Shown here: positions 1-16,402 of the stretch, piece by piece
Position numbering within the stretch: the stretch's first letter is position 1
Layout: the number at the start of each line of letters is the position of its first letter
Source of the DNA: a virus
Taxonomy: Duplodnaviria > Heunggongvirae > Uroviricota > Caudoviricetes
Virus record (IMG/VR): IMGVR_UViG_2671180606_000003
Span: 1 to 17,434 of that record
Strand: one strand, 5' to 3'
Length of the DNA: 17,434 nucleotides
The notes under the pieces: model-generated
The model's input: only the letters and a program-made list of their open reading frames with translations
The model's database searches: none
Told to the model about the DNA's origin: nothing
Program-made: the position numbers and the translations under genes

Positions 1-483
1 ATGACGAAGAAAAAAGCACATAAACTTGGTTCAGCGACCATCGCGCTTAACAAGCGCGCCCGTCACGAATACTTTATCGAAGAAGAGTTCGAAGCGGGAC
101 TTGCCCTGCAAGGCTGGGAGGTTAAATCCCTGCGCGCAGGAAAAGCCAATATCAGCGACAGCTACGTCCTTCTGCGTGACGGAGAGGCATTTCTGTTTGG
201 CGCTAACATCACGCCAATGGCCGTGGCCTCCACGCATGTGGTGTGCGATCCTACCCGTACCCGCAAGTTACTTCTCAACCAGCGCGAACTGGACTCATTG
301 TACGGTCGCGTCAATCGAGAAGGCTATACCGTAGTGGCGCTCTCCCTATACTGGAAAAATGCCTGGTGCAAAGTGAAAATCGGCGTCGCCAAAGGTAAGA
401 AACAGCACGATAAACGTTCAGACATCAAAGAACGCGAATGGCAGGTGGATAAAGCGCGTATCATGAAAAACGCCCACCGTTAA
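1..483 (+). CDS. smpB: SsrA-binding protein SmpB
   Basis: Full-length 160-aa ORF; the translation (MTKKKAHK...[72 protein letters not shown]...) matches enterobacterial SmpB as I recall it, and it sits directly upstream of ssrA as in E. coli. Confidence 0.96.
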
Positions 484-645
484 ACCTGTAGTCCAATTAT
501 TGACCAGTTCCTCACCGCGCCTCCCTCTCCGGCGGCGCGAATGAACATCTTATTGGCTATCACATCCGACACAAATGTTGCCATCCCATTGCTTAATCGA
601 ATAAAAATCAGGCTACATGGGTGCTAAATCTTTAATGATAACGCC

Positions 646-690
646 ATTGAGGCTGGTCATGGCGCTCATAAATCTGGTATACTTACCGTT
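646..690 (+). promoter_or_regulatory. Candidate ssrA promoter region (-10-like 'TATACT' at 678-683)
   Basis: AT-rich stretch just upstream of the tmRNA 5' end with a -10-like hexamer; no convincing -35 found and the transcription start is not determinable from sequence alone. Confidence 0.3.
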
Positions 691-697
691 ACACATT

Positions 698-1060
698 GGG
701 GCTGATTCTGGATTCGACGGGATTTGCGAAACCCAAGGTGCATGCCGAGGGGCGGTTGGCCTCGTAAAAAGCCGCAAAAAATAGTCGCAAACGACGAAAA
801 CTACGCTTTAGCAGCTTAATAACCTGCTTAGAGCCCTCTCTCCCTAGCCTCCGCTCTTAGGACGGGGATCAAGAGAGGTCAAACCCAAAAGAGATCGCGT
901 GGAAGCCCTGCCTGGGGTTGAAGCGTTAAAACTTAATCAGGCTAGTTTGTTAGTGGCGTGTCCGTCCGCAGCTGGCAAGCGAATGTAAAGACTGACTAAG
1001 CATGTAGTACCGAGGATGTAGGAATTTCGGACGCGGGTTCAACTCCCGCCAGCTCCACCA
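698..1060 (+). ncRNA. ssrA: tmRNA (transfer-messenger RNA, SsrA)
   Basis: Starts 'GGGGCTGATTCTGGATTCGACGGG', contains the tag-peptide reading frame 'gcaaacgacgaaaactacgctttagcagcttaa' (ANDENYALAA-stop) and ends with the tRNA-like 3' end '...GGTTCAACTCCCGCCAGCTCCACCA'; 363 nt. Confidence 0.97.
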
Positions 1061-1070
1061 AATAAATCAA

Positions 1071-1103
1071 GGGGTTACGTGAAAGCGTAGCCCCTTTTTC
1101 TTT
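1071..1103 (+). terminator. Rho-independent terminator downstream of ssrA (probably prophage-supplied)
   Basis: 9-bp stem 'ggggttacg'/'cgtagcccc' (one G-U pair) with loop 'tgaaag', followed by 'tttttcttt'. Confidence 0.55.
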
Positions 1104-1118
1104 GGTAGTGGCGGCAAA

Positions 1119-1157
1119 ATGGCGACAGACTATTGCGTCCATCTTGCCTGTCGCCAT
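1119..1157. repeat. Perfect 10-bp inverted repeat ('atggcgacag' ... 'ctgtcgccat', 19-nt spacer) upstream of the 1184 ORF
   Basis: Read directly from the sequence at 1119-1128 and 1148-1157; about 30 nt upstream of the ORF start, so a candidate operator or recombinase/IHF-arm site. Confidence 0.6.
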
Positions 1158-1183
1158 CTTGAAATCATGCAAAGAGGTTTCAC

Positions 1184-1666
1184 ATGGAAGAACTTCACTT
1201 TGTTTACATCAATGCAAATGGTCGTATCGGTGTTCACTCAATACAGAGCATCAGTTATAGCGAAAATCATATACAGGGCATTTGTAAGAACACCGATCGA
1301 ATAAAAACCTTCCGAAAAGACCGCATTCTTAAACAGTACGATTCACCAGAACAAGCCATTCAGGAATGCGCGTCATTCCTCCCCGAAAACTACTCACATC
1401 TCACTAAGCAGTCTGGTCCGAAAAAAAATACATTCGATGTGTGTTTCACCGGATTTAAGAAAGCAGATAAAGAAAGATTGGTTGATAAGGCGAATGAACA
1501 AGGATTAACGGTAAGAGCCTCTGTAACCCAAAGCCTTCAGATGCTCTGTTGCGGTTACAATGCAGGCCCATCGAAAGTATCGGCAGCCAGGATGAAAGGC
1601 ACGATCATCATAGATGAGCCTGGCTTTATACATTTTCTTGAAACGGGTGAGATCCCAGATGAATAA
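1184..1666 (+). CDS. Cargo protein with a C-terminal BRCT-like domain (160 aa), function unknown
   Basis: ATG with upstream 'agagg' RBS. The C-terminal approx. 75 aa (FDVCFTGFKKADKERLVDKANEQGLTVRASVTQS...AARMKGTIIIDEPGFIHFLETG) follow the BRCT pattern seen at the C-terminus of NAD-dependent DNA ligases. The N-terminal approx. 75 aa carry a 'TFRKDRI' motif weakly reminiscent of WYL-type regulators. Lies between the att/ssrA junction and ogr. Confidence 0.7.
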   Translation: MEELHFVYINANGRIGVHSIQSISYSENHIQGICKNTDRIKTFRKDRILKQYDSPEQAIQECASFLPENYSHLTKQSGPKKNTFDVCFTGFKKADKERLVDKANEQGLTVRASVTQSLQMLCCGYNAGPSKVSAARMKGTIIIDEPGFIHFLETGEIPDE

Positions 1667-1694
1667 AAACCTGCCGTAGCAGGTTCTCTTTCTC
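1662..1694. terminator. Candidate bidirectional terminator between the convergent BRCT gene and ogr
   Basis: Hairpin 'aacctgc'-cgta-'gcaggtt' flanked by an A-run upstream and a T-rich run downstream. Confidence 0.45.
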
Positions 1695-1911
1695 AGAAAT
1701 TCATATGCCCCTGACCACCTGGCAATGGATGTGGAGGAGCAGTAGCAATCAGTGCGGGTGTCACAATAAACCGGACCACTGTTTCATGGGTAACAAAAGT
1801 GCTCCCGCAGTTAATATTTTGGCACTGGCAGTAACGCTCTTTGGTGCTTTCAGTTACTTGAAAACTGCTCCTTGTGTGTGCCGCATGACCACACTTTGGA
1901 CAATTCATCAT
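1693..1911 (-). CDS. ogr: Ogr/Delta-family zinc-finger late-gene transcription activator
   Basis: Translation contains 'MNCPKCGHAAHTRSS...TKERYCQCQNINCGSTF...HPLPGGQ', the C4 zinc-finger signature of P2 Ogr. Start placed at the internal Met pair giving approx. 72 aa; the six-frame ORF extends to 1956. Confidence 0.85.
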   Translation of the reverse strand: MMNCPKCGHAAHTRSSFQVTESTKERYCQCQNINCGSTFVTHETVVRFIVTPALIATAPPHPLPGGQGHMNF

Positions 1912-1979
1912 ATCCAGATCCCTACCTTTGCTATCAGAATCATTGCAATGATACACAAAATATCAATATTGAGAACACA

Positions 1980-3080
1980 TTATTCCATTTCAAGATCACT
2001 TATCCTCACTTCGAGTTCAATGCTGGTTGTAAAACCGTTATCCGGGCTGACGGTATGTGTCAGGGTGGTAATGGTCCATTCCGCATCATCTATCGGCTGT
2101 TTAAAGCCACTGACTTTCACTGGCATTTCCGTGTAGAGATCTGCCCGCCCTTCCGCCAGTTGTAGCAAGAATGCCGCAACACCGCGTTGCAGACGTTCCC
2201 ACTGCATTTTCGCCGCTCGTTCGGCGTTGCTCCGGTTGGCATAAGTGCGATTAAGTACCAGCACGTTTTCATCCGTACCCACCAGGTAATCGCCCTGCTT
2301 CGCTTCCGGCTCTTTCTTCTGCTTCTTAGTCCTGCGCTTACGCTTCACCGTGGTGCTTTCTTTCTTCGCGGGTTCGCGGGTATGCAACCAGCTGGCAATT
2401 ACGCCCGTATAGGCTCCGCGATCTGCCAGGGTAAAGCGGTGACTGTCGCCGTCCTTACGCGTGATAGTGATCACCGGCAGTGGTTTACCGCTGGCGCTTT
2501 TGCCCTGTCCCTGCCGGATGAATAACAGATTGCCATTTTTCACCGACGCAATAGCACCGTACTGGCGCGCCAGCCGCATCAGAAAACTGCCGTCACTCTC
2601 ATTAGTCTGGTCTATATGTTCCACGGGCTTATCCGACAGGTCATTACCCAGTGCCATCTTCAGCTTGTGACGCGCGGCTATTTCCTTGACCACTTCCCCG
2701 ACAGTGGTCTTGTGCCACGACTTTTCACGGCGGGTATTCAGCGTTTCACGAAAATCAGCACTTCGCGCCCGGATAGTCAGGCGGTCCGGTGCGCCAGTGT
2801 GTTCAATCTCGTCCACCGTGAATGCCCCTTTCGGGAAAAGCGGCTGCCCCTTCCAGCCCAGCGCCAGCGTAATGACCGCACCACGGCGCGGCAGCGCTAT
2901 TTTTCCATCGGCGTCGTCCAGCTCCAGATCAAGCTGGTCCGCTTCAAAGCCCCGGTTATCCGTCAGCGTCAGCCTCATCAGGCGGTTATCCAGCACAGTG
3001 GTGATATCCCTGCCCTCAATACTGATGCTGAATGCGGGAGTTTTGTTGCCTTTGTTAAGCAGTTCAGAGCTGAAATTCAC
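1980..3080 (-). CDS. D: P2-family tail protein D (gpD)
   Basis: 366-aa ORF immediately downstream of U with an ATGA start/stop overlap; size and position (last late gene before ogr) match P2/186 gpD. Confidence 0.88.
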   Translation of the reverse strand: MNFSSELLNKGNKTPAFSISIEGRDITTVLDNRLMRLTLTDNRGFEADQLDLELDDADGKIALPRRGAVITLALGWKGQPLFPKGAFTVDEIEHTGAPDRLTIRARSADFRETLNTRREKSWHKTTVGEVVKEIAARHKLKMALGNDLSDKPVEHIDQTNESDGSFLMRLARQYGAIASVKNGNLLFIRQGQGKSASGKPLPVITITRKDGDSHRFTLADRGAYTGVIASWLHTREPAKKESTTVKRKRRTKKQKKEPEAKQGDYLVGTDENVLVLNRTYANRSNAERAAKMQWERLQRGVAAFLLQLAEGRADLYTEMPVKVSGFKQPIDDAEWTITTLTHTVSPDNGFTTSIELEVRISDLEME

Positions 3081-3562
3081 GACAGCAGCCCTCCCACCGT
3101 TTTACTGATATCACTTAAGGCAGATGTTGCCGTGTCCTGCAGATTATTCAGTTGCGTACTGAGATCACCGAACATATCGGACAGGGATTCATCCACCCGT
3201 TTGAGCGACAGGGTGAACTCAATCCGCCGCGGCATACCGTCGCGGAAAAACTCCGTTTTAGTCAGATTCAGTCCCTCAATCACATACATGCCGTAAATCG
3301 TGCCGCTGCCTTCAATCAGGGGCCATGCTTTTCCCTGTTCTGCCATCTGCTCCAGAGCCAGCAACGACAGCCTGCCGCCCGTTATCTCCGGCATAAGAAC
3401 ACCAGAAAGCGTCAGCATGTCGTTGTCCGGTCCCAGAAACTGCGTGGACGGACGACGGTTTACCCGGCTGTTTGCCGCATGTCGCCAGCTGCGTTGATAC
3501 TGCAGTTCCTGATACGGAACGGTGCGCAGCATAAACACGTACAATCCCAGCACCATCATCAT
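3077..3562 (-). CDS. U: P2-family tail protein U (gpU)
   Basis: 161-aa ORF between the tape-measure remnant and D, the P2 order T-U-D-ogr; size matches gpU (approx. 159 aa). Confidence 0.85.
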   Translation of the reverse strand: MMMVLGLYVFMLRTVPYQELQYQRSWRHAANSRVNRRPSTQFLGPDNDMLTLSGVLMPEITGGRLSLLALEQMAEQGKAWPLIEGSGTIYGMYVIEGLNLTKTEFFRDGMPRRIEFTLSLKRVDESLSDMFGDLSTQLNNLQDTATSALSDISKTVGGLLS

Positions 3563-4479
3563 GCGTCGTATCCCCCCTGATCGCTGTAGTTACTCCTGGC
3601 TTTTGCCTTCAGCCTGCGTTCACGTTCATCAAGCTGGCGTGCCACCTCCCGCGCAATATCCTGCGCACTTTGTCCTGGCTGCATCTGAATGATGATCTGC
3701 GTCGGTGCCTCAATCCTGTAAACGGGCGGCACAGTGGCTGCACGACTCACCATCGCTTCGCCGCCTTTCGCGGGAAGTGCCAAAGGATGCAACGGTGGAA
3801 GCTCTGCAGGCGCGGCAGCAACGCCCATCATTCCGGCAACAACGGCAGCCAGTGCAGCTGTATTTCTCCGGCTGGTCACATTTGCCGGGCCGTTAACAAT
3901 TTCCGGCCCGTTTTCACCGACGATGCCAAACTGCCCGCGCGGGATATAGCCGCCGCTGTCATACATCCCCGCAAAGCCATATCCCCATGACGGAAAACCA
4001 CCCGATGGCATCATCACTTTACCGTTTGTATTCACCGTCGCAGGTTGCTGACGCGTCACACTTTCCGGTAGTTTCGCCTTTGCGGCCTCTTTACTGACAA
4101 CGCCGAGTTTCTCCAGCAACCAGGAAACGCCGGATTTCAGGGAGTCCAGCGGATGCATGACCATATTCAGCCCTTCCGCCAGTGCCTCCCCGAATCGCCG
4201 CCCCATTGCCGCTGCACTCTGCAGTTCGGCAGAGGTTGACTTAACGGGCGTCAGCAGATCAGTAAACCAGCCCCACAGCGCCTGTACTTTGTCGCCAATC
4301 CACTGGAACACGGGCTTAAGCGGTTCGAATGCTGCACTGACGGGACCTGCCGCCGCTTTGAATCCTTCCACCACGCCACCAAGAAATGCGGTGATGGGTT
4401 GCCAGTATTTCCAGACAACCAGCGCCACGCCCGCCAGTGCAGTAACCACAAGACCTATCGGACTGAGCAGAGCACCTAC
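3559..4479 (-). pseudogene. T: Tail tape-measure protein (gpT), C-terminal fragment only
   Basis: Open frame of approx. 300 codons directly upstream of U, Gly/Ala-rich tape-measure-like C-terminus. P2 gpT is approx. 815 aa, but here the frame is closed by an in-frame stop at 4480-4482 and abuts an opposite-strand gene, so the N-terminal two-thirds are deleted. Confidence 0.7.
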
Positions 4480-4501
4480 CTACTGGTTTGTGCAATACGG
4501 C

Positions 4502-5092
4502 ATGACTACACAGCCGTATCAGTTCACGAAAGGCAGCATTTTTCACCTGATGGAACCGGATATCAACCAGGAGATCTACGGCCTGCCCGGTTATCTTTCT
4601 GCCATTCCGTCAGCCCTGCTCAACGAGTCCGCCACGCTGTTCCGCCGCAAGTATTACATTAACGGCAGCCACGCAGGCTTCATCATGTACATGACCGACG
4701 CCGCGCAGAATCAGGAGGATGTGAACAACCTCCGCAACGCGATGAAAAGCGCCAAAGGTCCAGGCAACTTCCGCAACCTGTTTATGTACTCACCTAACGG
4801 CAAAAAAGACGGGCTTCAGATCATCCCATTGTCAGAAGTCGCGGCGAAGGATGAATTTCTTAACATCAAGAACGTGAGTCGGGATGACATGATGGCAGCG
4901 CACCGCGTGCCGCCGCAAATGATGGGGATTATGCCGAATAATGTTGGGGGGTTTGGGGATGTGGAAAAGGCAAGCCGTGTATTCGTCCGAAATGAGCTAA
5001 TGCCACTACAAAAGCGATTACAGGAGATGAATGATTGGCTTGGCAAGGAGGCGATACAGTTTAATACCTACTCACTAGATATAGTCCCATAA
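4502..5092 (+). pseudogene. Q: Probable portal protein (gpQ-like) C-terminal fragment
   Basis: First in-frame ATG after the deletion junction; the upstream part of the six-frame ORF (4157-4501) is antisense to the tape-measure remnant. Strand and position (C-terminus pointing toward the cos-side region) fit P2 gene Q; the translation has a phage-portal-like flavour, unverified. Confidence 0.45.
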
Positions 5093-5095
5093 TAA

Positions 5096-5125
5096 GAAAA
5101 GCCACCGTTTGGTGGCTTTTCTTCA
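5096..5125. terminator. Bidirectional rho-independent terminator
   Basis: 'aaaagccacc'-gttt-'ggtggctttt': perfect 10-bp stem with A-run and T-run flanks, between the stop at 5092 (+) and the stop at 5127 (-). Confidence 0.65.
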
Positions 5126-5126
5126 T

Positions 5127-5867
5127 TTACTCAATAGGTTCAAACTCATCCTGAGGAATCAGCGTCGATTGACAGGCTTGGCTTAGTACTCCTGATAATT
5201 TACATAATAACCGATAGTTATGAGGAGCATCATCGCTAATCTTTTCGACCGTTAAAGTGATTGATTTTGGATCATCCAATAACATCTTCTTGATATCATT
5301 ACTTAAATACCTAGGGCAGTAACCAACGATTTCAGCTGGTTTATCTGCACGAACGACAACAGCATCCCCATCGTATTCATTTTGAAGATCCAAGCAAAGA
5401 CGCAAAATTTGCCCCGGTTTCAATTCAGATACACGAGCATTAGCTAAGCTATTTAAGTAACCAAGTCCATGTAAGAAGAAAAAATGCTCAAAGTTACCAT
5501 CAGAATCAACATCAATTTTTTTGAAAATCTGCAGCTGATCAGTGCTTCGTAAGCCTCCCGAGCGAGCAAGAATATCGATAGGATTTACCTTATCTTCTTC
5601 AAATCCAAGCCATTTAATGAAACTCGGATACTCTGGACGTCTCGGTGATAAAAGGCGATTTTTAAAAAGAGGAAACAATTCTTCCGAAACATAAGTTTCA
5701 CGAACATCACTCATGCCGCTAAACTTTGTAAATTTAGTAGATTTAAGAGCACCTTTGGTATACCTGAAAACATACCCCGATTTGCGCTCTTGCAAGTTAC
5801 CAACAACATGCCAGTCTCTGGTATCTGGTGCCTGCCATGCGACGTAAACGGAGTTTGTATTAGTCAT
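5127..5867 (-). CDS. HipA-N-terminal-like (HipS-like) module fused to a C-terminal HIRAN domain (246 aa)
   Basis: Start overlaps the kinase stop in an ATGA. The N-terminal approx. 110 aa (VYVAWQ...VVGNL...YVFRY...LFPLFKNRLLSP...IDILARSGGLRS) resemble the HipA N-terminal subdomain / HipS. The C-terminal approx. 110 aa (HGLGYLNS...LKPGQILRLCLDLQNEYDGDAVVVRADKPAEIVGYCPRYLSNDIKKMLLDD...ITLTVEKI) match the HIRAN pattern as in the HLTF N-terminus. Confidence 0.8.
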   Translation of the reverse strand: MTNTNSVYVAWQAPDTRDWHVVGNLQERKSGYVFRYTKGALKSTKFTKFSGMSDVRETYVSEELFPLFKNRLLSPRRPEYPSFIKWLGFEEDKVNPIDILARSGGLRSTDQLQIFKKIDVDSDGNFEHFFFLHGLGYLNSLANARVSELKPGQILRLCLDLQNEYDGDAVVVRADKPAEIVGYCPRYLSNDIKKMLLDDPKSITLTVEKISDDAPHNYRLLCKLSGVLSQACQSTLIPQDEFEPIE

Positions 5868-6778
5868 TCTAGTAACCTTCTGCGATTTTCCATTACCATT
5901 AACGTTGCAAATCTACGTGCACTGTCGGATATACACGATGAAGGCACTTGGTTAAACACATCTGTAATGGAATCTTCTGTTAAAACGCTCAACTTACCTA
6001 ACCAATGGTCGCGAGCGGCAACTCTCCCTTCAACTGCATGTTGAAATGCTTCAACGGTCAGCAAGGGCTTTTTATCAGTTTTTGCTTTGAATAGCTCAGA
6101 GCGAGCTTTTCTTACAAAACATGGGATTTGTCGATTTTTATCTTTAGTATTAAGCCGTTCGTTACGCTCATCATCTAACATCTCCCTTCCTAAACTAGCG
6201 GCATGATCGTATGTTGGACACAAAAACTGCTCACCAGTTTCATTGTTAAGCATGATCGCCCAATTTTCATGATGGCGATCTTGATTACTCACAAGTGCAT
6301 CGAGCATCAAATATCCACAAAATACATCTGCTGCATTTAGCCCGGTTAGATCATATACACTCGGAGGAGGCTTGATAGATTCCCTATCCAAACAACCCAA
6401 TACCCTTGTGACAGTGTGTTCTCTGACCCTTACCGGCTTTTCCCCGGCTTGTAAAGGCCCAGGATAATCGAATGTCGAACTGTGAAGCACTTCATTTCCC
6501 ATTACCATCCGGAAACCAGATGGAATGATATTCTGAGTCACCACACCGAATCGACCATTGTATCGCGCCAAATCATAGCTAGCATGTGGAATGTTAAGCA
6601 AATGACATAACTCAGCAGCACACTTTTCAGACCAATGCTCGCCAGTACCTGGCCTAGAGTACTTAAACAACTGCAAATTTACAGTGTCATCGGAGAAATA
6701 GAACCAAAACTTCTCTTTGGTTCCTAACTGTTCAAGATCGTTAGCTACGGGGCTAAGCTCTACCAATTGGTATGGCAT
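5864..6778 (-). CDS. HipA-family (HipT/CtkA-like) Ser/Thr kinase core domain (304 aa)
   Basis: P-loop-like 'GTKEKFW' (compare HipA 'GAQEKTAL') and catalytic-loop 'LVSNQDRHHENWAIM' (compare HipA 'IGATDGHAKNFSV'); lacks the HipA N-terminal subdomain. RBS-like 'aggga' 7 nt upstream of the ATG. AT-rich relative to the phage backbone. Confidence 0.85.
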   Translation of the reverse strand: MPYQLVELSPVANDLEQLGTKEKFWFYFSDDTVNLQLFKYSRPGTGEHWSEKCAAELCHLLNIPHASYDLARYNGRFGVVTQNIIPSGFRMVMGNEVLHSSTFDYPGPLQAGEKPVRVREHTVTRVLGCLDRESIKPPPSVYDLTGLNAADVFCGYLMLDALVSNQDRHHENWAIMLNNETGEQFLCPTYDHAASLGREMLDDERNERLNTKDKNRQIPCFVRKARSELFKAKTDKKPLLTVEAFQHAVEGRVAARDHWLGKLSVLTEDSITDVFNQVPSSCISDSARRFATLMVMENRRRLLE

Positions 6779-6937
6779 CTGACATCCCTGTTTAGCGGAT
6801 TATGAATAAGTTAGGTTCCATTTTATCCAAACATTGTCAAATACTCTAAGATTTATTAGATGATAGAGCGATACTGTATGCATGTCCAGCAATCAAATCA
6901 ATATATAACTCTTATATGACTTAGCGCGCGCTCGTAT

Positions 6938-6956
6938 CCCCGCCACGCCTGCCCGC
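6938..6956 (-). other. Possible degenerate cos-site remnant
   Basis: The minus strand reads 'GGCGTGGCGGGGATACGAG'; the first 12 nt equal the start of the 19-nt 186 cohesive end as I recall it (GGCGTGGCGGGGAAAGCAT), about 15/19 overall. Relies on a remembered cos sequence. Confidence 0.3.
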
Positions 6957-7386
6957 TTTGTGTAGTGGTTTTCATGCAGTTGCATAACATAAGCAAAAGC
7001 CCGTCAGAACTGGCAGGCTTCGACATAAACGATCCACTAGCGATCATTCATTTTCATGCAGCATAGGTATGCACCAGAGTTACTTTGAGGTGCAATGGAT
7101 GATACCTACAGATTTGCTACCCAAGGTCATGCTGAAAATCTATCGCATCTGTATGATGCCGCGGACATAGCGAAATCTCCCCATGCAGTGACAAACTACT
7201 TGAGTAAATACTGTTGTGTTACCACAAGAAGAGATTTCAAAAGGAAAACAACGCTATGTTATCTAGTACATATAGCTATAAATGTCTTAATTTTAGCCAA
7301 TACATTGAATTAAATGAAAAAATACTTTAGTTTGTATACTATTTTTTAGCGTTCAAGATTATGCAATTTTTTGGAGAGAACTATAA

Positions 7387-8355
7387 GTGGGATCTTTCAG
7401 TTTACTTGCATCACGACCAATACCAACTGTGCTAGAAACAAGACAGTTTAACTCAGTTAACGGCAGTGACGCCGAATCTTATGCAATGAGTCAATTCATT
7501 CTTGCTTGTAGAGGAGAGGGGCACTGGGGTTCCAGGGAAGACGACAATTCAAAAATAGATTTAATATTATCCTTCGAACATCCATGGGCATCAAAAGAAA
7601 GAATGCTTATATTGTCGCAAGTTAAATCAGGGGCAACTTATGGTCATTTATTAGAGAAAGGTTTTGTATTAAATTCGGCCGCAAAAAAAGCAGCCAAAAG
7701 GACAACTCACCATATATGTGTCGTTTGGGTTGACAGAACTAATCGTAAAGCATTTTGGGCCTATATACATCCAAACACTACCCTTAAAAACCAAACTTAT
7801 GGAGAATATCACTTAATCACTCCGGCTACACGGTTTGACCTGGCTCGCTGTATGTCCATGGTACGTGCAGGTGAAACTGGAGCAAAAGGAATCCATGTAA
7901 GAAGAAGAAACTCACTACTTAATAATCGGCGAGCGTTTGTTAAAAAACGTTATTCTGAACAGAAAGAAATCACATCTCCGGTGCTTGGGAAAATCGAGCT
8001 TACACGGCTGGGTTGGAGACATATGTTCAGAAAGAGTCGCAGAGAAGAAAACAAAGCAACGAGTTTGGACATTATTCCCTACTTGAGAAATTTACTAGTT
8101 CGGTTTCCTTCAACTCATGCTATTACTTCTTCTGATGTCCGTGATTACGGCTGTTTTACTTACCAAAGAAGAGAGCACTTATTGAAATTTAATAATCTAG
8201 AGGTTACTTATGCCAAAGGAGAGGGAAAAAATAAAGTATGTGCTTATATTCGTGTTATAGAAGAAATAAGGTATCCAAAAGATTGGACTAACGCGGTAAT
8301 GCTATCACAGCAGGTTGAAAGACGAGTGGTTTTGAAGTCAGCATATTATAAATAA
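7387..8355 (+). CDS. Hypothetical cargo protein (322 aa), possibly a PD-(D/E)xK-like nuclease fold
   Basis: GTG start 9 nt downstream of 'GGAGAG'. AT-rich. The N-terminal region carries 'KIDLILSFEH...SQVKSG', compatible with a D...E...(Q/E)xK restriction-endonuclease-like motif; the C-terminus is basic. Domain assignment is weak. Confidence 0.65.
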   Translation: MGSFSLLASRPIPTVLETRQFNSVNGSDAESYAMSQFILACRGEGHWGSREDDNSKIDLILSFEHPWASKERMLILSQVKSGATYGHLLEKGFVLNSAAKKAAKRTTHHICVVWVDRTNRKAFWAYIHPNTTLKNQTYGEYHLITPATRFDLARCMSMVRAGETGAKGIHVRRRNSLLNNRRAFVKKRYSEQKEITSPVLGKIELTRLGWRHMFRKSRREENKATSLDIIPYLRNLLVRFPSTHAITSSDVRDYGCFTYQRREHLLKFNNLEVTYAKGEGKNKVCAYIRVIEEIRYPKDWTNAVMLSQQVERRVVLKSAYYK

Positions 8356-8940
8356 CGAGGCCGTTGGGAAGCCAGCACTTGCGCCCATGCTCTGCCAGAT
8401 TCCGGTTTCGAATCGGTTCTCTGGCAATAATGCGGATAGCGTACTGGGCATCAGCCTTAGCTTTTGCACTCAACCCAACGACCAAGTGGTGAAGCATACT
8501 AGTAAAGAAACTTTAATTCTAGATGTTTTGAAGCAATTCTCACATCAAGTATTAATTTTTCTAAAGCAATGACCTAATGGTATGTCAGGTTTCAACGAAA
8601 ATTGGCAACCAATCTAGATAACTGTACCTTTTCAAAAAACTGGTGCGTATCGTTAGTCTCCTTTCGCCGTTGTTCCAGTCTGGTCGCTTCAATAAAAAGC
8701 AAGGCCGCCGTACAGCGAAACTATATAATCATAGCTTAAGCCAAATCACTCATCTAAGGTGTGGCTCCATTAGTAGTTTGAGCGCTAACAGCCCCTCTGG
8801 CGATAAAACTACTCAATACCTGGCACGAAACAAAATCTGGAAGTTACTATTTTTTTGCCCATGACTAACGCCTCGCATGGCTCGTTGATCAACCTTGCTA
8901 GCGTCAGAATCAAGTCCTAACGCCAGCAACGTTCCTAAGC

Positions 8941-9129
8941 CTAACCGGGGAGATCCATTGAACGGTTGTACTCATGAGTACGGATTTTCGCCATTAACTC
9001 ATCGGTCAGCTCCGAAACCCACTGGATAGCAAGCCGCTTCTCTTCATCATCGCACTCACTAGCCGCTACAAGCTTAAGAAAAAAATCAATGCGCTGGAGC
9101 TTCAAAGACTCCAAAAAATAGTCCTGCAT
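8941..9129 (-). CDS. Small protein (62 aa) downstream of a LexA-box promoter; candidate SOS-inducible antirepressor-type gene
   Basis: Strong RBS (minus strand 'TAGGAGGAAAG' then ATG) and a LexA-box promoter about 50 nt upstream; lies between gene A and the cos-side region, where 186 carries its LexA-controlled tum operon. Confidence 0.6.
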   Translation of the reverse strand: MQDYFLESLKLQRIDFFLKLVAASECDDEEKRLAIQWVSELTDELMAKIRTHEYNRSMDLPG

Positions 9130-9171
9130 CTTTCCTCCTATGACACCACACGCAATACTGTATGTATAACC

Positions 9172-9214
9172 ACTGTTTATATTTACAGTATATAATAATC
9201 TTACTGATGTAAAA
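9172..9214 (-). promoter_or_regulatory. SOS (LexA) box overlapping a sigma70-like promoter
   Basis: 'aCTGTttatatttACAGta' (9172-9189) fits the CTGT-N8-ACAG LexA consensus. Minus-strand -35 'TTTTAC' (9214-9209) and -10 'TATACT' (9192-9187), spacer 16, with the box overlapping the -10. Confidence 0.6.
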
Positions 9215-9283
9215 CGTTTTTTTTACGCTTATCAGCCTGATATGCCTGGTATTATTAAGAGCACGAATTGTTAACCCGCGTAA

Positions 9284-11698
9284 TTAATACAGGTTCCGCC
9301 ACTTATCATCTTCCTGCAAACGCTGGTTCCGATAGAAGATACGCAGGCCTGCTCCTGACGGAATACTGCCGCCACGAAGGAGTAAATCGACCTCTTTCTC
9401 GCTGCCATCAAATCCTCTGGACTTCAGTTCATAGACGAGCTGCTGTCGCTGATGGTCTGTAATTCGCTGTTTGTAGTCTTTACGCCGTTTCGGTTTCACC
9501 AGGCGTAACCTTGCAGCCAGTTCCCGGCGCTCTTTTTTGCTCATACTGTGCAGGTATTCGTGCAACTCCTTGTCATCCATGCGGGTAATGTCCGTTCTGG
9601 TATCCCCATCAGCTGATTTGTCTTTCCCTTGTTGGTTCAAATTTTCAGCAAGGGGACAGTTATTGCCACGAGTCCAAGGGGCGCAAGCGCCCTGGTCGGC
9701 TGCCGCCTCCTGAACGTCAACGGCTTTACGAACCATTTTCCACTTCACTGCATGAGTGCAGATCTTGCCCTCTGCAATGGGTGACCAGATGCCATAAATA
9801 CGAATACCGTGATCGCCATAGGCGGTCGGCTCTTCGTTGATTTCATAAGCGGTTCTGATGAGGTGATATTTACGGGGAACCAGTACGCCGCCCTGCTTCA
9901 TGATGTAGGTGGCAAAGCAACCAGCATCAGCTGCAGCCAGAATGGCATCAAGGCGCGGGTTATCCAGTACCGGCGCACCTGCTTTTTTGTCACCCTGTTG
10001 CCTTGCCGCCTGACCAGCCAGCAATCGCAGTTCACGGTAAGCCTGACGCCCCGGAATGCCAAAGAAGCGGAATTGCTGAACACGATGCAGAGACGCCCAG
10101 GCATTAACGTATTCAGCGTTATCACGCAGAGATTTACCCGTTTCCTTGCTGATCTCGCCAGCCAGACCACGCCCGTCAATGTTCTTACTGATATATTTCG
10201 CGATGTAGCTTGTCGGCGTTCCTTTACGCGGGTTAATCAACTCAGACTTAAAGCGCGGCCCAGTGTTATTGCCCAGCTCCTCGCGGTCTTCACGGATGGC
10301 AAACTTACGCAGTAATGCAGTGATGGCGCGGCGGTCTTTTTTGCGCATAAAACACAACAGGTGCCAGTGAACTGTACCGTCATGATGCGGCTCAGCCACC
10401 CGCACGCCATACCAGCGCAATCCGGCTTTGTGCATCGCCTTACGAAATGCAGCAAACATGCCGACCAGATAGTCGCTGCTTTGTCTTACCGTCGAGTTTG
10501 TCCAGGTCGGGTTGGGTCTGCCGTTATTGAGCGTGGAATGGAAACGCGACGGACAGGTGATAGTGTAGAAAACGGCGCAGTCACTGCGCATTTCCGCGAT
10601 AAGCTCCAGACCTTTAACACAGGCCATCATCTCATTGCGGCGATGCGCCGGGTTGCTGCTGCTGGCGTTTACCACATCTTCCATATCCAGCGTGTCGCCG
10701 TCTTCGTTCACCAGTTCATGAGAACGGAAAAACTCCAGCGACTTACGGCGCTGCTCACGTTTATGCATCACGGCTTCATAGCTGACATAGGGGGATGCTT
10801 TTTTGCTGACCAGGCAGACAGCACGCAACTGCTCTTCCCGCCATTCGCAACGCATCTTCCATAATTTCCGATACCACCAGTCGGCACACAACATACGCGC
10901 CAGCGAACCCGGAATGAGTTCATAGGGCACGGGTTTACGGCGGTTTCTTTTCCGACGGAGTTGCTCAAACGCAGGCGGAATAACATCCAGACGCAGGGTT
11001 TCCGCTGCCACCTTTTCCCATGTTTTGCGGATTTCTTCTGGCTTAACGTCATCGGTGGCATACAAATCACCACAAGCGGCATCAAGGCACATACTCATAT
11101 GCGCAGCGACAAGGGTAGACAGGCGCTTCACCTGATCCTGACTCATTTCAGGCAGGATAAGCAGGCCATCCAGCCCTTCATGGCTTGCCATAAAGCGAAA
11201 AGAAGTGGATAGCTGACAGTCGCGGACATGCTCCAGTCGTTCCAGACATGGCTTAATCGTCTCACGCAAATAGCGGGAATAAGCCTTTGGCCTGCCCAGG
11301 CTGCTGAAATATTCAATACGTTGCATCAGCGGCTTGCTGATATGGGAAGGCTGGGCGTTGACGTCAGCCAGAATGACCATGTCTGGATTAAAACGCTGCT
11401 GCTCATGCGCCAGCTTTGCCCGGCTAATGAGCTTATCCTGCTCCATTTCGCGCTGGACAGGATCACGGGATTCATTAAAGAAATAACGCTCCCAGACCTG
11501 ATCACTCAGTGCCTCGCGGCGCAGTTGTTCCTGCTCGTTATCGGCAGCGTACAGAGTGATCAGGTTTGAAAGTGCAGAAACCGGCGCAACTTCCGCCGGG
11601 TCCAGATAAGGGTTAATGGCCTTTTTTGGGCTGTTCCATGAGAATGCTGCGGCGACCTCGTTAAAGCCGCTGCAGTTGTTCATATCAGCATGGCTCAT
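9284..11698 (-). CDS. A: P2/186-family replication initiation protein A (rolling-circle nickase)
   Basis: Approx. 804-aa ORF; start placed at the Met whose ATG overlaps the dam stop (ATGA), while the six-frame ORF starts at 11725. Contains the active-site tyrosine motif 'YIAKYISK'; follows dam as in 186-like phages. Confidence 0.88.
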
Positions 11699-12552
11699 GC
11701 ACGCACTCCGTACACGGCGGAACAATCCACGCCACGCGAAGGATCAAATCCTACCCAGCAGCGCGGCCCGGAAACAGCAATGATTTCTGTTGCAGATTTA
11801 CTCTCACCAGCTGCCACGCCGATGCTGCGTTTTGCCTTGATGTAGTGGTGAGTAAAATTGCGATACAGCGAACGGATCAGGGATGTGTCACTGTTAGAAA
11901 TAATGACCGGATATCCTTCTGATGACCGATGTTCAAGAACAGATGCCAGGTGATACTGGTCATCTTCAGTGAAACCATCAGTGTGATAGCCTGAAAACGT
12001 ACCGTCATAAGGCGGATCGCAATACACCACATCCCCCGCGTGCAACATCGCCAGCGTTTCATCGAAGCTGGCGCAGATAAACGTTGCCCGCTGAGCTTTT
12101 ACTGCAAATGCACGAATTTCTTTTTCAGGAAAATACGGATTTTTATAATTACCGTAGGGAATGTTGAAATGCCCGCTCTTGTTATAGCGACATAAACCAC
12201 GGTAACCGTGACGATTGAGATACAGGAAATATATCGCTTTCATGAAATCAGTAATTTCAGTTGAGTAATTAAACTCCTGCCTTATGTTGTAATAATCCAT
12301 CTCCCTGTTTGCGTTCTCAAATAAAACTCTGGCGCGAGATATAAACGATTCACAATCAGCGGCAACCTTTTTATAGAGGTTGATTAAATCAGGATTAATA
12401 TCCGCAACCAGATAGCTGGGATAATCCGTCTCCATCATCACAGCACAGGAACCCGCGAAAGGTTCAACCAGTCGCGGGCCAGCAGGAAGATGTTTTTTCA
12501 GTTCGGACATTATGGCAGTTTTATTTCCCGCCCATTTCAGGATGGTGCTCAT
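11695..12552 (-). CDS. dam: DNA adenine methyltransferase (Dam family)
   Basis: 'ILKWAGNK', 'VEPFAGS' and 'VVYCDPPY' motifs and close overall resemblance to E. coli Dam; start placed at '[11 protein letters not shown]', whose ATG overlaps the upstream TraR stop (the six-frame ORF extends to 12612). Confidence 0.92.
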
Positions 12553-12776
12553 ACAGCACCTCCGTTGTAATGTTTGCCTTTCAGCTCTGCGATTTCCTGA
12601 CAGGTAATGCAAAGCTGCACACCCGGAATGGCACGGCGGCGTGCTGGCGGAATTGGCGCTTCACACTCAATGCAAAGCATGCGGGACACGCCCGGCGTTT
12701 TGGCACGGGCAGCACGGATATGGCGTTGGCGTTCTTCTTCAACGCGCTGCTGTACGAGATCCATTGCATCAGCCAT
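12549..12776 (-). CDS. TraR/DksA-family C4 zinc-finger protein (phage type)
   Basis: 75 aa with 'CIECEAPIPPARRRAIPGVQLCITCQ' (CxxC-N17-CxxC), typical of P2/186 early-operon TraR-like proteins. Confidence 0.85.
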   Translation of the reverse strand: MADAMDLVQQRVEEERQRHIRAARAKTPGVSRMLCIECEAPIPPARRRAIPGVQLCITCQEIAELKGKHYNGGAV

Positions 12777-13015
12777 TAGTGGATCTCCTGCGCTTCGTTC
12801 TGGATTGCTTCAGCAGTCACACGAAGCAGTTCTGCCGCTTCGACGTGGGTTAGCTGGCGGGATGTGATATGACACGCCAGGCTATCAAGGCGAGCTGCCA
12901 TTGCTTCAGCCCTTGCCCGGCGTTCTTCCAGACGAGCCTCTGTCAGTAAAATATTAAGCCCTGCGTCATCCGGTCCGGTTTTGGTCGAGAGGGTTTCAAT
13001 ATTACGCATAATCAA
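12776..13015 (-). CDS. Hypothetical phage early protein (79 aa)
   Basis: ORF whose stop overlaps the TraR start by 1 nt (TAATG); position in the early operon between cII and A. Confidence 0.6.
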   Translation of the reverse strand: MIMRNIETLSTKTGPDDAGLNILLTEARLEERRARAEAMAARLDSLACHITSRQLTHVEAAELLRVTAEAIQNEAQEIH

Positions 13016-13076
13016 TTCTCCTGAATTTAGATAAAGGGATGCCCGGCGGGTTTACGCCATTAATTTCATTAGTTGG

Positions 13077-13418
13077 TTAATTCGGCATGGTTAGCCGTCT
13101 GGGAAATAAGCTCACCACTGCACGAAAATGATTCATTGCTTTAATCAACTCCCGCTTTTCGTCAGTGGTCAGCTCATTAATGCTGATGCTATGACGTTCA
13201 GCTGGAATTTTTGCCATAAAGAATATGGCAGCCAGTGCCCGTTTATTTTGTTCGCTATTAATATCGCGTGGATCACGCATATCTTTAATAAACCGCTCAA
13301 GCTCTGACTCAATATTCAGACCAAAAACTTTCGCCCTTAACTCCGCAATGTGATTAAGTCCATTCAGGCGTTCACCGGGGCCTAATGGAACAGTCGCCGC
13401 AGCGCCATTAATTGCCAT
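13077..13418 (-). CDS. Hypothetical phage early protein (113 aa)
   Basis: ORF in the early-operon orientation with phage-like codon usage; no recognisable motif. Confidence 0.55.
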   Translation of the reverse strand: MAINGAAATVPLGPGERLNGLNHIAELRAKVFGLNIESELERFIKDMRDPRDINSEQNKRALAAIFFMAKIPAERHSISINELTTDEKRELIKAMNHFRAVVSLFPRRLTMPN

Positions 13419-13440
13419 AATTCATATTCCCAAAACGCAA

Positions 13441-13665
13441 CTATCGCTCTTTGTTCTTACGGTAACGCTCAAGAGGAGATATATTTTTTCGTATCATCTC
13501 TTTAACCTGCTCTCCCCGTAAAAACGTCCCATCCTTTAGCGTGAAAAAGTAACTGCCATCGCCCGACAACGACGGATAACAACAGAGCAAATCATCTTCA
13601 GATACTGAATAACTCTCCCCTCTGTAACGAAACTGATAAACCACTTCACTTTCCGCTGCATACAT
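13441..13665 (-). CDS. Hypothetical phage early protein (74 aa)
   Basis: ATG preceded by 'GGAGAAAG' with 8-nt spacing on the minus strand; plausible small protein (MYAAESEVVYQFRYRGESYSV...). Confidence 0.5.
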   Translation of the reverse strand: MYAAESEVVYQFRYRGESYSVSEDDLLCCYPSLSGDGSYFFTLKDGTFLRGEQVKEMIRKNISPLERYRKNKER

Positions 13666-13832
13666 TTTGACTTTCTCCGTTTCCCCGTGGTCAATTCAGA
13701 CAGCAATTCATCTTGTGAACGGCACGGATGCCAGCGTTTACCATCCTCACCCATGATCCAGCCGTGACCGTAGTGCATTGCCGGACTTTGTTTTACCAGC
13801 AGCGATGCAAATGATGGTTCTTTCGTCAGCAT
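13536..13832 (-). CDS. Hypothetical phage early protein (98 aa) immediately downstream of cII; 3' extent doubtful
   Basis: ATG 7 nt after the cII stop with a 'GAGGTG' RBS; its last 130 nt overlap the 13441-13665 ORF in another frame, so the real C-terminus may be shorter or the gene frameshifted. Confidence 0.4.
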   Translation of the reverse strand: MLTKEPSFASLLVKQSPAMHYGHGWIMGEDGKRWHPCRSQDELLSELTTGKRRKSKCMQRKVKWFISFVTEGRVIQYLKMICSVVIRRCRAMAVTFSR

Positions 13833-13839
13833 AAGCACC

Positions 13840-14349
13840 TCACAGCAATCCGAATGAAGCACCGAGGCCAGTTACGGTATCAACTGCACTTGCCATCGCA
13901 GGATTAGCCTGTAAACGGGCCTGCAATGAAACAGCAGCCAGCGCCATCAGTCGTGTAACAGAGTTAATGCTGCTGATCGCATCACGACGGCCTGCACTGG
14001 TTTTTACATCGCCAGAAACCGCACCAGCCGCGACACGCCCTATCTCTGCAGTTGCACTCATGACGTAATGCGGCAGTTTCTCTTTTGCCACCTCATTAAG
14101 CGGAACACATGGCAGACAATGAATCTGTGCCAGAAAACCATCTACCAGCGTTGAATCTTCAGTCAGATCGGTAAGTAGCCAGATATCTCGTGCAGTGAGC
14201 TGATGCGGTTGTTCCGGGTTCAGCTTGTTACGCAGCGTCTGGACGTTCATTCCCGCGAGTTCTGCTAGCTTCGCCATATTGTGACGTAGTGCAAAAGCTC
14301 TACAGGCTTCATCAAAATGCGGATGTTTGGAAATCTTGTAATCAAACAT
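13840..14349 (-). CDS. cII: CII-like lysogeny-establishment transcriptional activator (186 CII family)
   Basis: 169 aa, the same length as 186 CII; HTH 'NMAKLAELAGMNVQTLRNKLNPEQ'; position after apl and divergent from cI. Confidence 0.78.
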   Translation of the reverse strand: MFDYKISKHPHFDEACRAFALRHNMAKLAELAGMNVQTLRNKLNPEQPHQLTARDIWLLTDLTEDSTLVDGFLAQIHCLPCVPLNEVAKEKLPHYVMSATAEIGRVAAGAVSGDVKTSAGRRDAISSINSVTRLMALAAVSLQARLQANPAMASAVDTVTGLGASFGLL

Positions 14350-14381
14350 GGTGCTCCCTTAGAAAGTTCCCATAATTGAAA

Positions 14382-14624
14382 TTACTTACCAACAATGACG
14401 CGGAAGTTGGAATGACCGAGGGATTCACGGACCTGATCAGTTTTGTACATTAGATAACGCAGGCTTACGCGGCCTTTGTTTTTTTCTTTCTTGACCATGT
14501 ACTTAGCGAGTTGACCATGGTGAATTTTTTGGTAAACAGACCCGCGGGAAATCCCTTCCCATTCAGCGAATTCAGCAGGCGTAGCCATCTCTTTTGGTAC
14601 ACGAATTGAAATATCTGTGCTCAT
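14382..14624 (-). CDS. apl: Apl/Cox-like excisionase and transcriptional regulator
   Basis: 80-aa HTH protein (ATPAEFAEWEGISRGSVYQKIHHGQL), first gene of the leftward operon divergent from cI, as for 186 Apl. Confidence 0.7.
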   Translation of the reverse strand: MSTDISIRVPKEMATPAEFAEWEGISRGSVYQKIHHGQLAKYMVKKEKNKGRVSLRYLMYKTDQVRESLGHSNFRVIVGK

Positions 14625-14726
14625 AGTGCAGTATCTCTTGGTTTAAGCTCGTTTTATGATGTTTAACCCCAACTTCTAAACTCTCATATTAGAAGTTAAA
14701 TACAAAAATACGATCTCGTTATTGGA
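14625..14726. promoter_or_regulatory. Lysis/lysogeny switch region (pR/pL equivalents) with candidate operators
   Basis: 102-bp AT-rich spacer between divergent apl and cI. Contains a perfect 9-bp inverted repeat 'AACTTCTAA'-N9-'TTAGAAGTT' (14671-14697) and direct 'GTTTAA' repeats at 14641 and 14661; promoter hexamers not confidently assigned. Confidence 0.5.
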
Positions 14727-15377
14727 TTGTCAAATGGAGAGTTCATCTTGAAGATTAATACAGGTGCAAATACGGGAGGGAGAGAGACCATCAAAAGGCT
14801 GATGACAGCCTATGGTTTCAACACTCAGATAGCGTTGGTTGAACACCTCGAAGCATCAAAAAGCACCATGGCAAACAGGATGTTACGTGATAGCTTCCCT
14901 GCTGACTGGGTTATTCAATGTGCCCTTGAAACAGGTATTTCTCTTCTTTGGCTGACAACGGGCCAAGGGGAAATGTATCCTCAAACAGAAGAAAAAAATA
15001 AGTTCAAAAACGAGAGTTCACCTACAGTTCGCCCCCTTTCAAAGATAGTTATCCCATCAGTAAGGCAGGCAACCATTGAGAACGGAACTCTCGAAGAGAT
15101 GGGGGATGTTTTCCTTGATCAGACTTTGATACCCGGAAAAGCCGAATATTGTTTGTACGTCAAAGCTAACGACGGCAATTACATTGTTGATACATCAACA
15201 AAACAGCTTAGTAACGGAATTTGGCTCATAGACATCGACGGTATGAAAAACATCGTCAAAATTGCGCGCATACCTGGAAACAAAATAGTAGTTAACCAAG
15301 ATGACACGTCATTTGAATGTTCTGTAGATGATGTGGAAGTCGTAGGACGTGCAGTCAAAGTAATCAAGAACCTCTAA
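14727..15377 (+). CDS. cI: CI-like immunity repressor (HTH and C-terminal domain)
   Basis: HTH segment 'NTQIALVEHLEASKSTMANRMLRDSFPADWVIQCALETGISLLWL'; directly upstream of int in the same direction as in 186. The six-frame ORF starts at a TTG; the true start may be internal. Confidence 0.8.
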   Translation: MSNGEFILKINTGANTGGRETIKRLMTAYGFNTQIALVEHLEASKSTMANRMLRDSFPADWVIQCALETGISLLWLTTGQGEMYPQTEEKNKFKNESSPTVRPLSKIVIPSVRQATIENGTLEEMGDVFLDQTLIPGKAEYCLYVKANDGNYIVDTSTKQLSNGIWLIDIDGMKNIVKIARIPGNKIVVNQDDTSFECSVDDVEVVGRAVKVIKNL

Positions 15378-15380
15378 CTT

Positions 15381-16400
15381 ATGACCATAAGAAAACAGCC
15401 GAACGGAAAATGGTTGTGTGAGTGCTATCCCAATGGACGCAATGGTAAGCGCGTGCGTAAGCAATTTGCTACCAAAGGCGAAGCTATTGCATTTGAAAGC
15501 TTCACAATGGAAGAAGTGAACAAAAAACCATGGCTGGGGGAAAAGGAAGATCGGCGACATTTATCAGAATTAATTGAGCTGTGGTATTCCCTGTATGGTC
15601 AAACACTCACAGACCCCAAGCGCCTCATGGCGAAACTTAGTATTATCTGTAATGGTCTAGGCGATCCCATCGCTTCAGAACTGACAGCCGGTGACTTTAC
15701 GAAATACCGCGAAGCACGGTTAAAAGGTGAAGTACGAAATGAAGATGGCACGCTTATGTCGCCCGTTAAGCCCCGCACGGTAAACCTTGAACAGCGCAAT
15801 CTATCATCTGTTTTTGGTACACTGAAAAAGCTGGGCCACTGGTCAGCCCCCAACCCGCTTGCCGGGCTGCCAACATTTAAAATTGCTGAGAGTGAATTGG
15901 CGTTCCTGACCCCGGAAGAAATTAAACGTCTGCTGGATGCCTGTGCTGATTCTCAAAGCTCTAGTCTGCTGACGGTTGCAAAAATATGTCTGGCCACCGG
16001 CGCGAGATGGAGTGAAGCCGAAAACCTGCAGGGCCATCAATTATCAAAATACCGGATCACTTACACCAAAACTAAAGGCAAGAAAAACCGAACCGTACCG
16101 ATATCTCAGGAGCTATATGAAGAACTCCCCAAAAACAGAGGGAAACTATTCACGCCCTGCAGAAAAGCTTTTGAGCGCGCAGTAAAACGAGCCGGTATAG
16201 ACCTGCCTGAAGGCCAGTGCACACACGTGTTGCGCCATACATTCGCCAGTCACTTCATGATGAATGGCGGAAACATATTGGTACTACGCGATATTCTTGG
16301 TCACTCTGATATAAAAATGACGATGGTTTATGCTCATTTTTCGCCAGATCATTTAGAAGATGCTGTAACAAAAAATCCACTGGCTATGTTGGGATACTGA
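15381..16400 (+). CDS. int: Tyrosine integrase, P2/186 Int family
   Basis: 339 aa; 'RNGKRVRKQF', 'LATGARWSEAENL', 'RTVPIS', 'HVLRHTFASHF' and 'MVYAHFSPDHL' align with P2 Int signatures (R, H-x-x-R, Y catalytic residues). Confidence 0.93.
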   Translation: MTIRKQPNGKWLCECYPNGRNGKRVRKQFATKGEAIAFESFTMEEVNKKPWLGEKEDRRHLSELIELWYSLYGQTLTDPKRLMAKLSIICNGLGDPIASELTAGDFTKYREARLKGEVRNEDGTLMSPVKPRTVNLEQRNLSSVFGTLKKLGHWSAPNPLAGLPTFKIAESELAFLTPEEIKRLLDACADSQSSSLLTVAKICLATGARWSEAENLQGHQLSKYRITYTKTKGKKNRTVPISQELYEELPKNRGKLFTPCRKAFERAVKRAGIDLPEGQCTHVLRHTFASHFMMNGGNILVLRDILGHSDIKMTMVYAHFSPDHLEDAVTKNPLAMLGY

Positions 16401-16402
16401 TA

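Follow-up and report, generated by a model that had tools for sequence, protein, structure and literature searches.

The cos-to-A cargo segment and its gene

The window analyzed here is the whole stretch of 17,434 nucleotides that makes up positions 1 to 17,434 of the viral record IMGVR_UViG_2671180606_000003 (Caudoviricetes). It provides a P2-like prophage context in which an open reading frame (ORF) on the plus strand lies inside the variable cargo slot between the cos region and gene A (Table 1). The left boundary of the slot contains a single match to the cos-type motif GGCGTGGCGGGGA (positions 6937 to 6949, minus strand), which we take to be cos from the P2/186 cohesive ends. Since a 160-bp core that is conserved among P2-like phages includes this motif, the term cos-to-A used for this segment in a preliminary description of the sequence is correct. 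The cos-to-A slot is a documented anti-phage hotspot, and old and tin are the classical P2 cargo at this site. The flanks of the slot are common to about 1,260 E. coli genomes, and the cargo differs between prophages; because neighboring prophages carry different cargo at the same position, the hotspot argument made earlier holds. The ORF shares with old and tin its position in the prophage and its status as an accessory gene apart from the early operon, whereas the proteins are unrelated, that of the ORF lacking any PADLOC match as well as an OLD-type ATPase and a TOPRIM domain. The PADLOC candidate system PDC-M03 (PDC-M03A/B) is found on the opposite side of cos. An obligatory link between the ORF and this system was rejected, since prophage H12 has PDC-M03 with other cos-to-A cargo. 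A prophage integrase is located about 7 kb from the ORF.

TABLE 1 Features of the cos-to-A segment and its right flank (positions in the window)
Feature	Position(s)	Strand	Basis
cos region, left slot boundary	6916..7082		Kept in 91 P2-like phage records
Variable cargo segment, low GC (0.395)	7074..8842 (about)		Similarity breakpoints versus P2-like prophages L027 and L028; GC content
Shine-Dalgarno-like GGAGAG, 8 nt upstream of GTG	7373..7378	+	Read from sequence
Gene for 322-aa two-domain protein, GTG start, stop TAA (8353-8355)	7387..8355	+	ORF listing, sequence, relatives
Predicted DUF4365/DREN-type PD-(D/E)xK nuclease domain, residues about 1-170	7387..7896	+	Pfam relatives, structure match, motif
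Catalytic candidates E30, D58, Q78, K80	7474-7476, 7558-7560, 7618-7620, 7624-7626	+	Invariant in 39 homologues
Basic alpha+beta domain, LPD3-like, residues about 171-322	7897..8352	+	pI 10.3; weak Pfam match
Structured noncoding element, ~125 nt, probably the 3' UTR RNA of the gene	8359..8483	+	Conservation, covariance models
Closing stem P1	8362-8368/8474-8480	+	Element structure
Stem P2	8372-8375/8444-8447	+	Element structure
Stem P3	8380-8384/8439-8443	+	Element structure
Stem P5, variable tip	8393-8399/8420-8426	+	Element structure
Stem P6	8448-8455/8460-8467	+	Element structure
62-aa backbone ORF (phrog_698), adjoins gene A, right slot boundary	8941..9129	-	PHROG E 1e-36; conserved in other prophages
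gpA (gene A)	9284..11725	-	Pfam Phage_GPA, E 1e-125

The extent of the gene was assessed from its relatives, 179 of which, with a length of about 320 amino acids, span 99% of the 322-amino-acid protein. The start annotated in RefSeq, M34, results in a protein of 289 amino acids and drops the invariant residues N22, N25, G26, D28, and E30. Judged from the sequence, the RefSeq start needs correcting to the GTG at 7387. The ORF has a GC content of 0.39 and a GC3 of 0.30, as compared to 0.53 and 0.57 for gene A, and its transcription converges with that of the early operon, gpA being encoded on the minus strand; the AT richness and opposing orientation noted previously are thus both borne out. The segment had also been described as holding a single ORF. 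This stands insofar as no second protein gene was accepted, but a conserved noncoding structured element follows the stop codon. Two small ORFs over this element (8387 to 8572, plus strand; 8288 to 8497, minus strand) were discarded because they contain stops or 1-nt indels in loci L031 and L003, and a stop codon readthrough product was discarded, as the position of the reading frame with respect to the element varies between loci. Consensus scans for a promoter and a terminator gave nothing convincing. Searches of PADLOC-DB 2.0.0, which includes old, tin, and the PD-T4/T7/Lambda, Rst, and PDC families, returned 0 families at E <= 1 for the protein, and nothing usable was retrieved from NCBIfam, from PHROGs, or from the PDB sequences by single-sequence and profile searches.

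Domain architecture of the encoded protein

The spacing of acidic residues and a QVK triad had led to the suggestion that the N terminus may adopt a PD-(D/E)xK nuclease fold, and both profile and structure searches agree with it. (i) The DUF4365 (PF14280) hidden Markov model (HMM) scores 12.9 bits (E 0.12) on the protein itself, which is below the cut-off of 24.3, and at E <= 0.01 it matches 19 of 39 close relatives (best, 4.9e-7) and 41 of 57 remote relatives (best, 2e-15). (ii) The alpha-beta-beta-beta-alpha-beta core of the PD-(D/E)xK fold is present, and the best structural matches are the DREN domains of SPARDA, in which a short prokaryotic Argonaute is combined with a DREN-APAZ protein, as in TmuRE-Ago (PDB 9qcc, 9vx6, and 9jt2; Foldseek E 1e-7). 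(iii) The catalytic Glu (helix 1), Asp (strand 2), and QxK (strand 3) occupy canonical PD-(D/E)xK positions: E30 is in helix 19-41, D58 opens strand 59-64, and Q78-x-K80 is in strand 72-81, the QVK triad being Q78-V79-K80 (7618 to 7626). (iv) The QxK motif corresponds to Q62/K64 of the DUF4365 nuclease TmuRE, the active site that was mutated in that enzyme (PMC10810196). Taken together, these data support the prediction that the N-terminal half is a DREN-type PD-(D/E)xK nuclease with an intact catalytic motif.

The C-terminal domain (residues 171 to 322) carries a net charge of +18, so that its earlier description as highly basic is accurate, and it may plausibly bind nucleic acid. Its hallmark motifs are GWRHMFRxxR, EEIRYPxxW, and a terminal YxK, and its invariant residues include R211, H212, R215, R218, K223, E292, R312, Y320, and K322. 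With a cut-off of 27, the LPD3 (PF18798) HMM reaches 14.5 bits on the 322-amino-acid protein; 11 of the 39 close and 12 of the 57 remote relatives are matched at E <= 0.01 (best, 1.4e-7), and these weak but recurrent matches in 23 relatives cover the first ~55 residues of the domain. Structure comparison of the C-terminal domain gave no clear neighbor, the weak ones including the RNA-acting RelE/BrnT/CdiA-CT folds. The domain is found almost exclusively behind a DUF4365 nuclease domain, and the idea that it is a promiscuous sensor module was abandoned because it almost never occurs without DUF4365. LPD3 is found in polyvalent proteins of phages and plasmids (Iyer et al. 2017, PMC5512222), whereas the domain described here is a fixed nuclease partner outside any giant polyvalent protein.

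A structured element downstream of the stop codon

Nucleotide conservation runs on beyond the stop codon of the ORF into an element with a minimum free energy (MFE) of -47.6 kcal/mol (z, -2.6) that folds into several stems (Table 1). Covariance models, one of them built from a trimmed 13-sequence alignment, placed this element directly after the stop codon, in the same orientation as the gene, in 25 of 26 distinct loci from five bacterial groups, namely, alpha-, beta-, and gammaproteobacteria, Bacteroidota, and cyanobacteria. In the alignments, 89.9% of the element cells pair, as compared to 75.3% in shuffles and no more than 41% when the structure is slid. Compensatory changes were observed in 18 of 31 pairs, although these counts stem from alignments fitted to the model and therefore lean towards structure. 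On the sense strand, two positions have G-U as their most frequent pair. Downstream of the Pedobacter homologue and of one gene from the remote subfamily, no copy of the element was detected.

The association with the gene is equally evident in larger data sets. All 10 true instances in metagenomes follow the gene, whereas 8 further matches to the pattern only have neither the gene nor a match to the model. The element is found in the same 4 of 5,426 E. coli genomes as the ORF, and among the metagenome matches and these genomes it was not seen without the gene. No match at E <= 1 was found in Rfam 15 for positions 6779 to 9283 or for six other element-bearing loci. By conservation and covariation, the element is a structured RNA family that is absent from Rfam and linked to the gene. 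Between E. coli and Alcanivorax, its loop nucleotides hardly vary, whereas the ORF protein is only 64% identical. The better conservation of the loops compared with the coding sequence suggests that a specific partner recognizes them. An attC site carries the R'' box (RYYYAAC) at its 5' end and the R' box (GTTRRRY) at its 3' end and forms one long imperfect hairpin. The element was rejected as an attC site because its 5'-GTTGGG...CCCAAC-3' termini show the reversed box order, because it is multi-branched, and because a separate canonical Vibrio attC follows it in locus L033.

Genomic neighborhoods and possible mode of action

Homologues of the ORF are rare and patchy in distribution. None was detected in the deposited phage genomes, and a profile search with the remote subfamily in a word-indexed database retrieved 4 proteins only. 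The neighborhoods of homologues are rich in defense and mobility genes. (i) Gabija is found within 7 kb of the gene in 2 of 9 further loci; a location of the Gabija pair directly upstream in L004 and L007 is suggested by ORF sizes, the scan being an aggregate one without assignment of hits to ORFs. (ii) The Nodosilinea homologue is inside a Dnd cluster, directly after an SBD-HNH (ScoMcrA-like) gene, and a remote member adjoins a Type ISP enzyme. (iii) One homologue is in a mobile island that also bears CBASS, and the island of another encodes PrimPol, SNF2-PLD, an SLFN-like helicase, MrcB_N/NOV_C, and an integrase. (iv) EcoRII/Dcm/Vsr and four integrases are close to other homologues, and one adjoins an integrase plus IS21. 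(v) The Vibrio parahaemolyticus homologue is a one-ORF integron cassette with attC repeats on both flanks, in which the element is kept between the ORF and attC; a second Vibrio copy appears to be an integron cassette as well. No recurring neighbor protein was found around the homologues. This context supports a putative role of the ORF in defense. The proposal that it is a single-gene defense candidate holds in part, as no protein partner was conserved, but it has to be amended by the structured element linked to the gene.

We tentatively propose, as a serious possibility that falls somewhat short of an even chance, that the locus encodes an infection-triggered defense nuclease that is controlled through its own 3' RNA and travels as a compact mobile module in the P2 hotspot. 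The defense function, the binding of the RNA by the protein, the direction of regulation, and the trigger are steps that we infer. The locus would comprise one protein gene and a structured 3' RNA, as mobile cargo of the cos-to-A hotspot, with the DREN-type (DUF4365) nuclease domain as the effector. The basic LPD3-like domain would bind the 3' RNA element of the module, and this contact would control the nuclease. In a healthy cell, the RNA would hold the nuclease inactive or unassembled. Infection would alter the RNA or its occupancy, whether through a halt in transcription, through decay of RNA, or through competition from a phage nucleic acid or protein, and the released nuclease domains would then pair up, as DREN domains do when SPARDA filaments are activated. 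Once paired, they would break down DNA, and possibly RNA, without discrimination, resulting in abortive infection. We hold with slightly more reserve the specific claim that the 3' RNA is a genuine subunit of the system, so that a ribonucleoprotein, formed by RNA binding of the LPD3-like domain, would act as the sensor or switch of the DREN-type nuclease instead of the protein by itself. Such a subunit could be an RNA antitoxin in the toxin's own 3' UTR or a scaffold that recognizes invader nucleic acid.

To our knowledge, DREN/DUF4365 nucleases have so far been understood only as effectors switched by an Argonaute. The protein of the ORF has in common with DREN the E...D...QxK catalytic arrangement and, judged from its relatives, probably the Pfam family, and DREN serves SPARDA as a defense effector that cuts nucleic acids nonspecifically once assembled. 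However, no Argonaute (MID-PIWI) is present near the ORF or in the homologue neighborhoods listed, the protein has no recognizable APAZ, its nuclease domain is fused to the LPD3-like basic domain, and its sequence similarity to the solved DREN domains is below HMMER detection. In addition, SPARDA guides come from the transcriptome, whereas the present module encodes a fixed structured RNA at the 3' end of the gene. The ORF would be a free-standing DREN nuclease that moves via prophage hotspots, defense islands, and integron cassettes; it comes with a partner domain of its own and with a covarying RNA that is conserved in several bacterial phyla. Few protein-RNA immune modules are known, among them retrons, type III toxin-antitoxin (TA) systems, and the noncoding RNAs (ncRNAs) of DRT systems. 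Should the RNA control or guide the enzyme, the locus would be a new compact (~1.1-kb) protein-RNA immune module and would provide a function for the orphan LPD3 domain, for which we know of none; if the RNA is a subunit, it would represent a new class of protein-plus-ncRNA immune module.

The type III TA systems ToxIN, CptIN, and TenpIN resemble this proposal in logic, as they reside on mobile elements and pair a nuclease with a structured RNA encoded in cis, and the RNA keeps the enzyme in check until it is disturbed by infection. They differ in that their RNA is an upstream tandem-repeat array, separated by a terminator and processed by an endoRNase toxin, whereas here a single RNA copy is located downstream, at the stop codon, of a gene for a predicted PD-(D/E)xK enzyme. 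An RNA that follows the ORF is produced at about one copy per mRNA, which is a poor antitoxin design as compared to type III. The element could also be solely a cis-acting stabilizer or a translation-coupled regulator.

A protein-only defense nuclease, for which the 3' element would be an ordinary cis feature of the mRNA without a role in sensing or enzyme control, is a possible but somewhat unlikely alternative. What is known of the nuclease and its context applies equally to both readings, and other single-protein PD-(D/E)xK systems sense and kill alone. GAPS1 is a single-protein PD-(D/E)xK defense gene of mobile islands that is widespread in Klebsiella (Mahata et al., bioRxiv 10.1101/2023.03.28.534373), and a homologue of the ORF is present in a similar island (L031). 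The ORF is not GAPS1 itself, since the motif of GAPS1 is near the C terminus (D313, K328), the nuclease domain of the ORF protein is N-terminal, and no similarity was detected. The element is single-copy and located downstream of the ORF; it adjoins the stop codon or overlaps with it, so that ribosomes terminating there would melt P1, as is usual for elements that control expression. Its cis role could be that of an exonuclease block, a stabilizer, or a regulator of expression coupled to translation termination, and the failure to detect it in the Pedobacter and remote-subfamily loci speaks for this reading. Nevertheless, generic 3' stabilizers lack sequence conservation across phyla, in contrast to the near-invariant loops, and the element occurred nowhere else in the metagenome matches and E. 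coli genomes and is kept in integron cassettes, where space is limited. Even on this conservative reading, the analysis provides a structured RNA family that is undescribed and clearly anchored to a gene, a corrected RefSeq start, and a candidate that can be cloned for assays in E. coli.

The ORF may alternatively be a member of the single-gene system Divona, in which case only the RNA element would be new, but we regard this as improbable. Divona is a Vibrio cholerae integron cassette with an N-terminal DUF4365 and a second domain; its anti-phage activity has been validated, including activity against phage 24, and it is reported to occur in E. coli with integrases no more than 20 kb away (Darracq et al. 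2024, bioRxiv 10.1101/2024.07.02.601686). The single ORF, its N-terminal domain, the Vibrio cassettes, and the nearby prophage integrase would all agree with membership. In contrast, the second domain reported for Divona is crr6 (PF08847) instead of an LPD3-like domain, and its description mentions no RNA element. PF08847 was absent at E <= 1 from the ORF protein and, at E <= 0.01, from the families listed for the 39 and 57 relatives, although the published crr6 assignment may come from a more sensitive method. Furthermore, a search with a Vibrio homologue as query and cluster look-ups listed no V. cholerae protein among the relatives, although cassettes of strain N16961 are abundant in databases.

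Still less probable, in our view, is a modification-dependent (type IV-like) restriction endonuclease, in which the C-terminal domain would read modified or unusual DNA and the nuclease would cut it. The direct cutting of modified invading DNA would account for the absence of an immunity gene, the architecture resembles that of a reader plus a nuclease, and the strong conservation of the C-terminal domain across phyla suggests a conserved ligand; the Nodosilinea copy in the Dnd cluster and the remote member beside the Type ISP enzyme also fit. Yet the C-terminal fold is unlike the modified-base readers SRA, EVE/ASCH/YTH, SBD, and winged helix, the obligately linked RNA element would be left without a role, and the DREN-type nucleases characterized so far are nonspecific collateral nucleases (PMC10810196). 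We give equally little credence to a selfish or maintenance module, either an addiction (TA-like) cassette or a homing-type nuclease that spreads the ORF-plus-RNA unit, given that no repeated target site, no intron or intein context, and no Rfam intron match were found and that the hotspot position and the Gabija, Dnd, CBASS, and restriction-modification neighbors fit defense islands. An addiction cassette would stabilize prophages, islands, and integron arrays, and addiction and abortive infection are mutually compatible roles.

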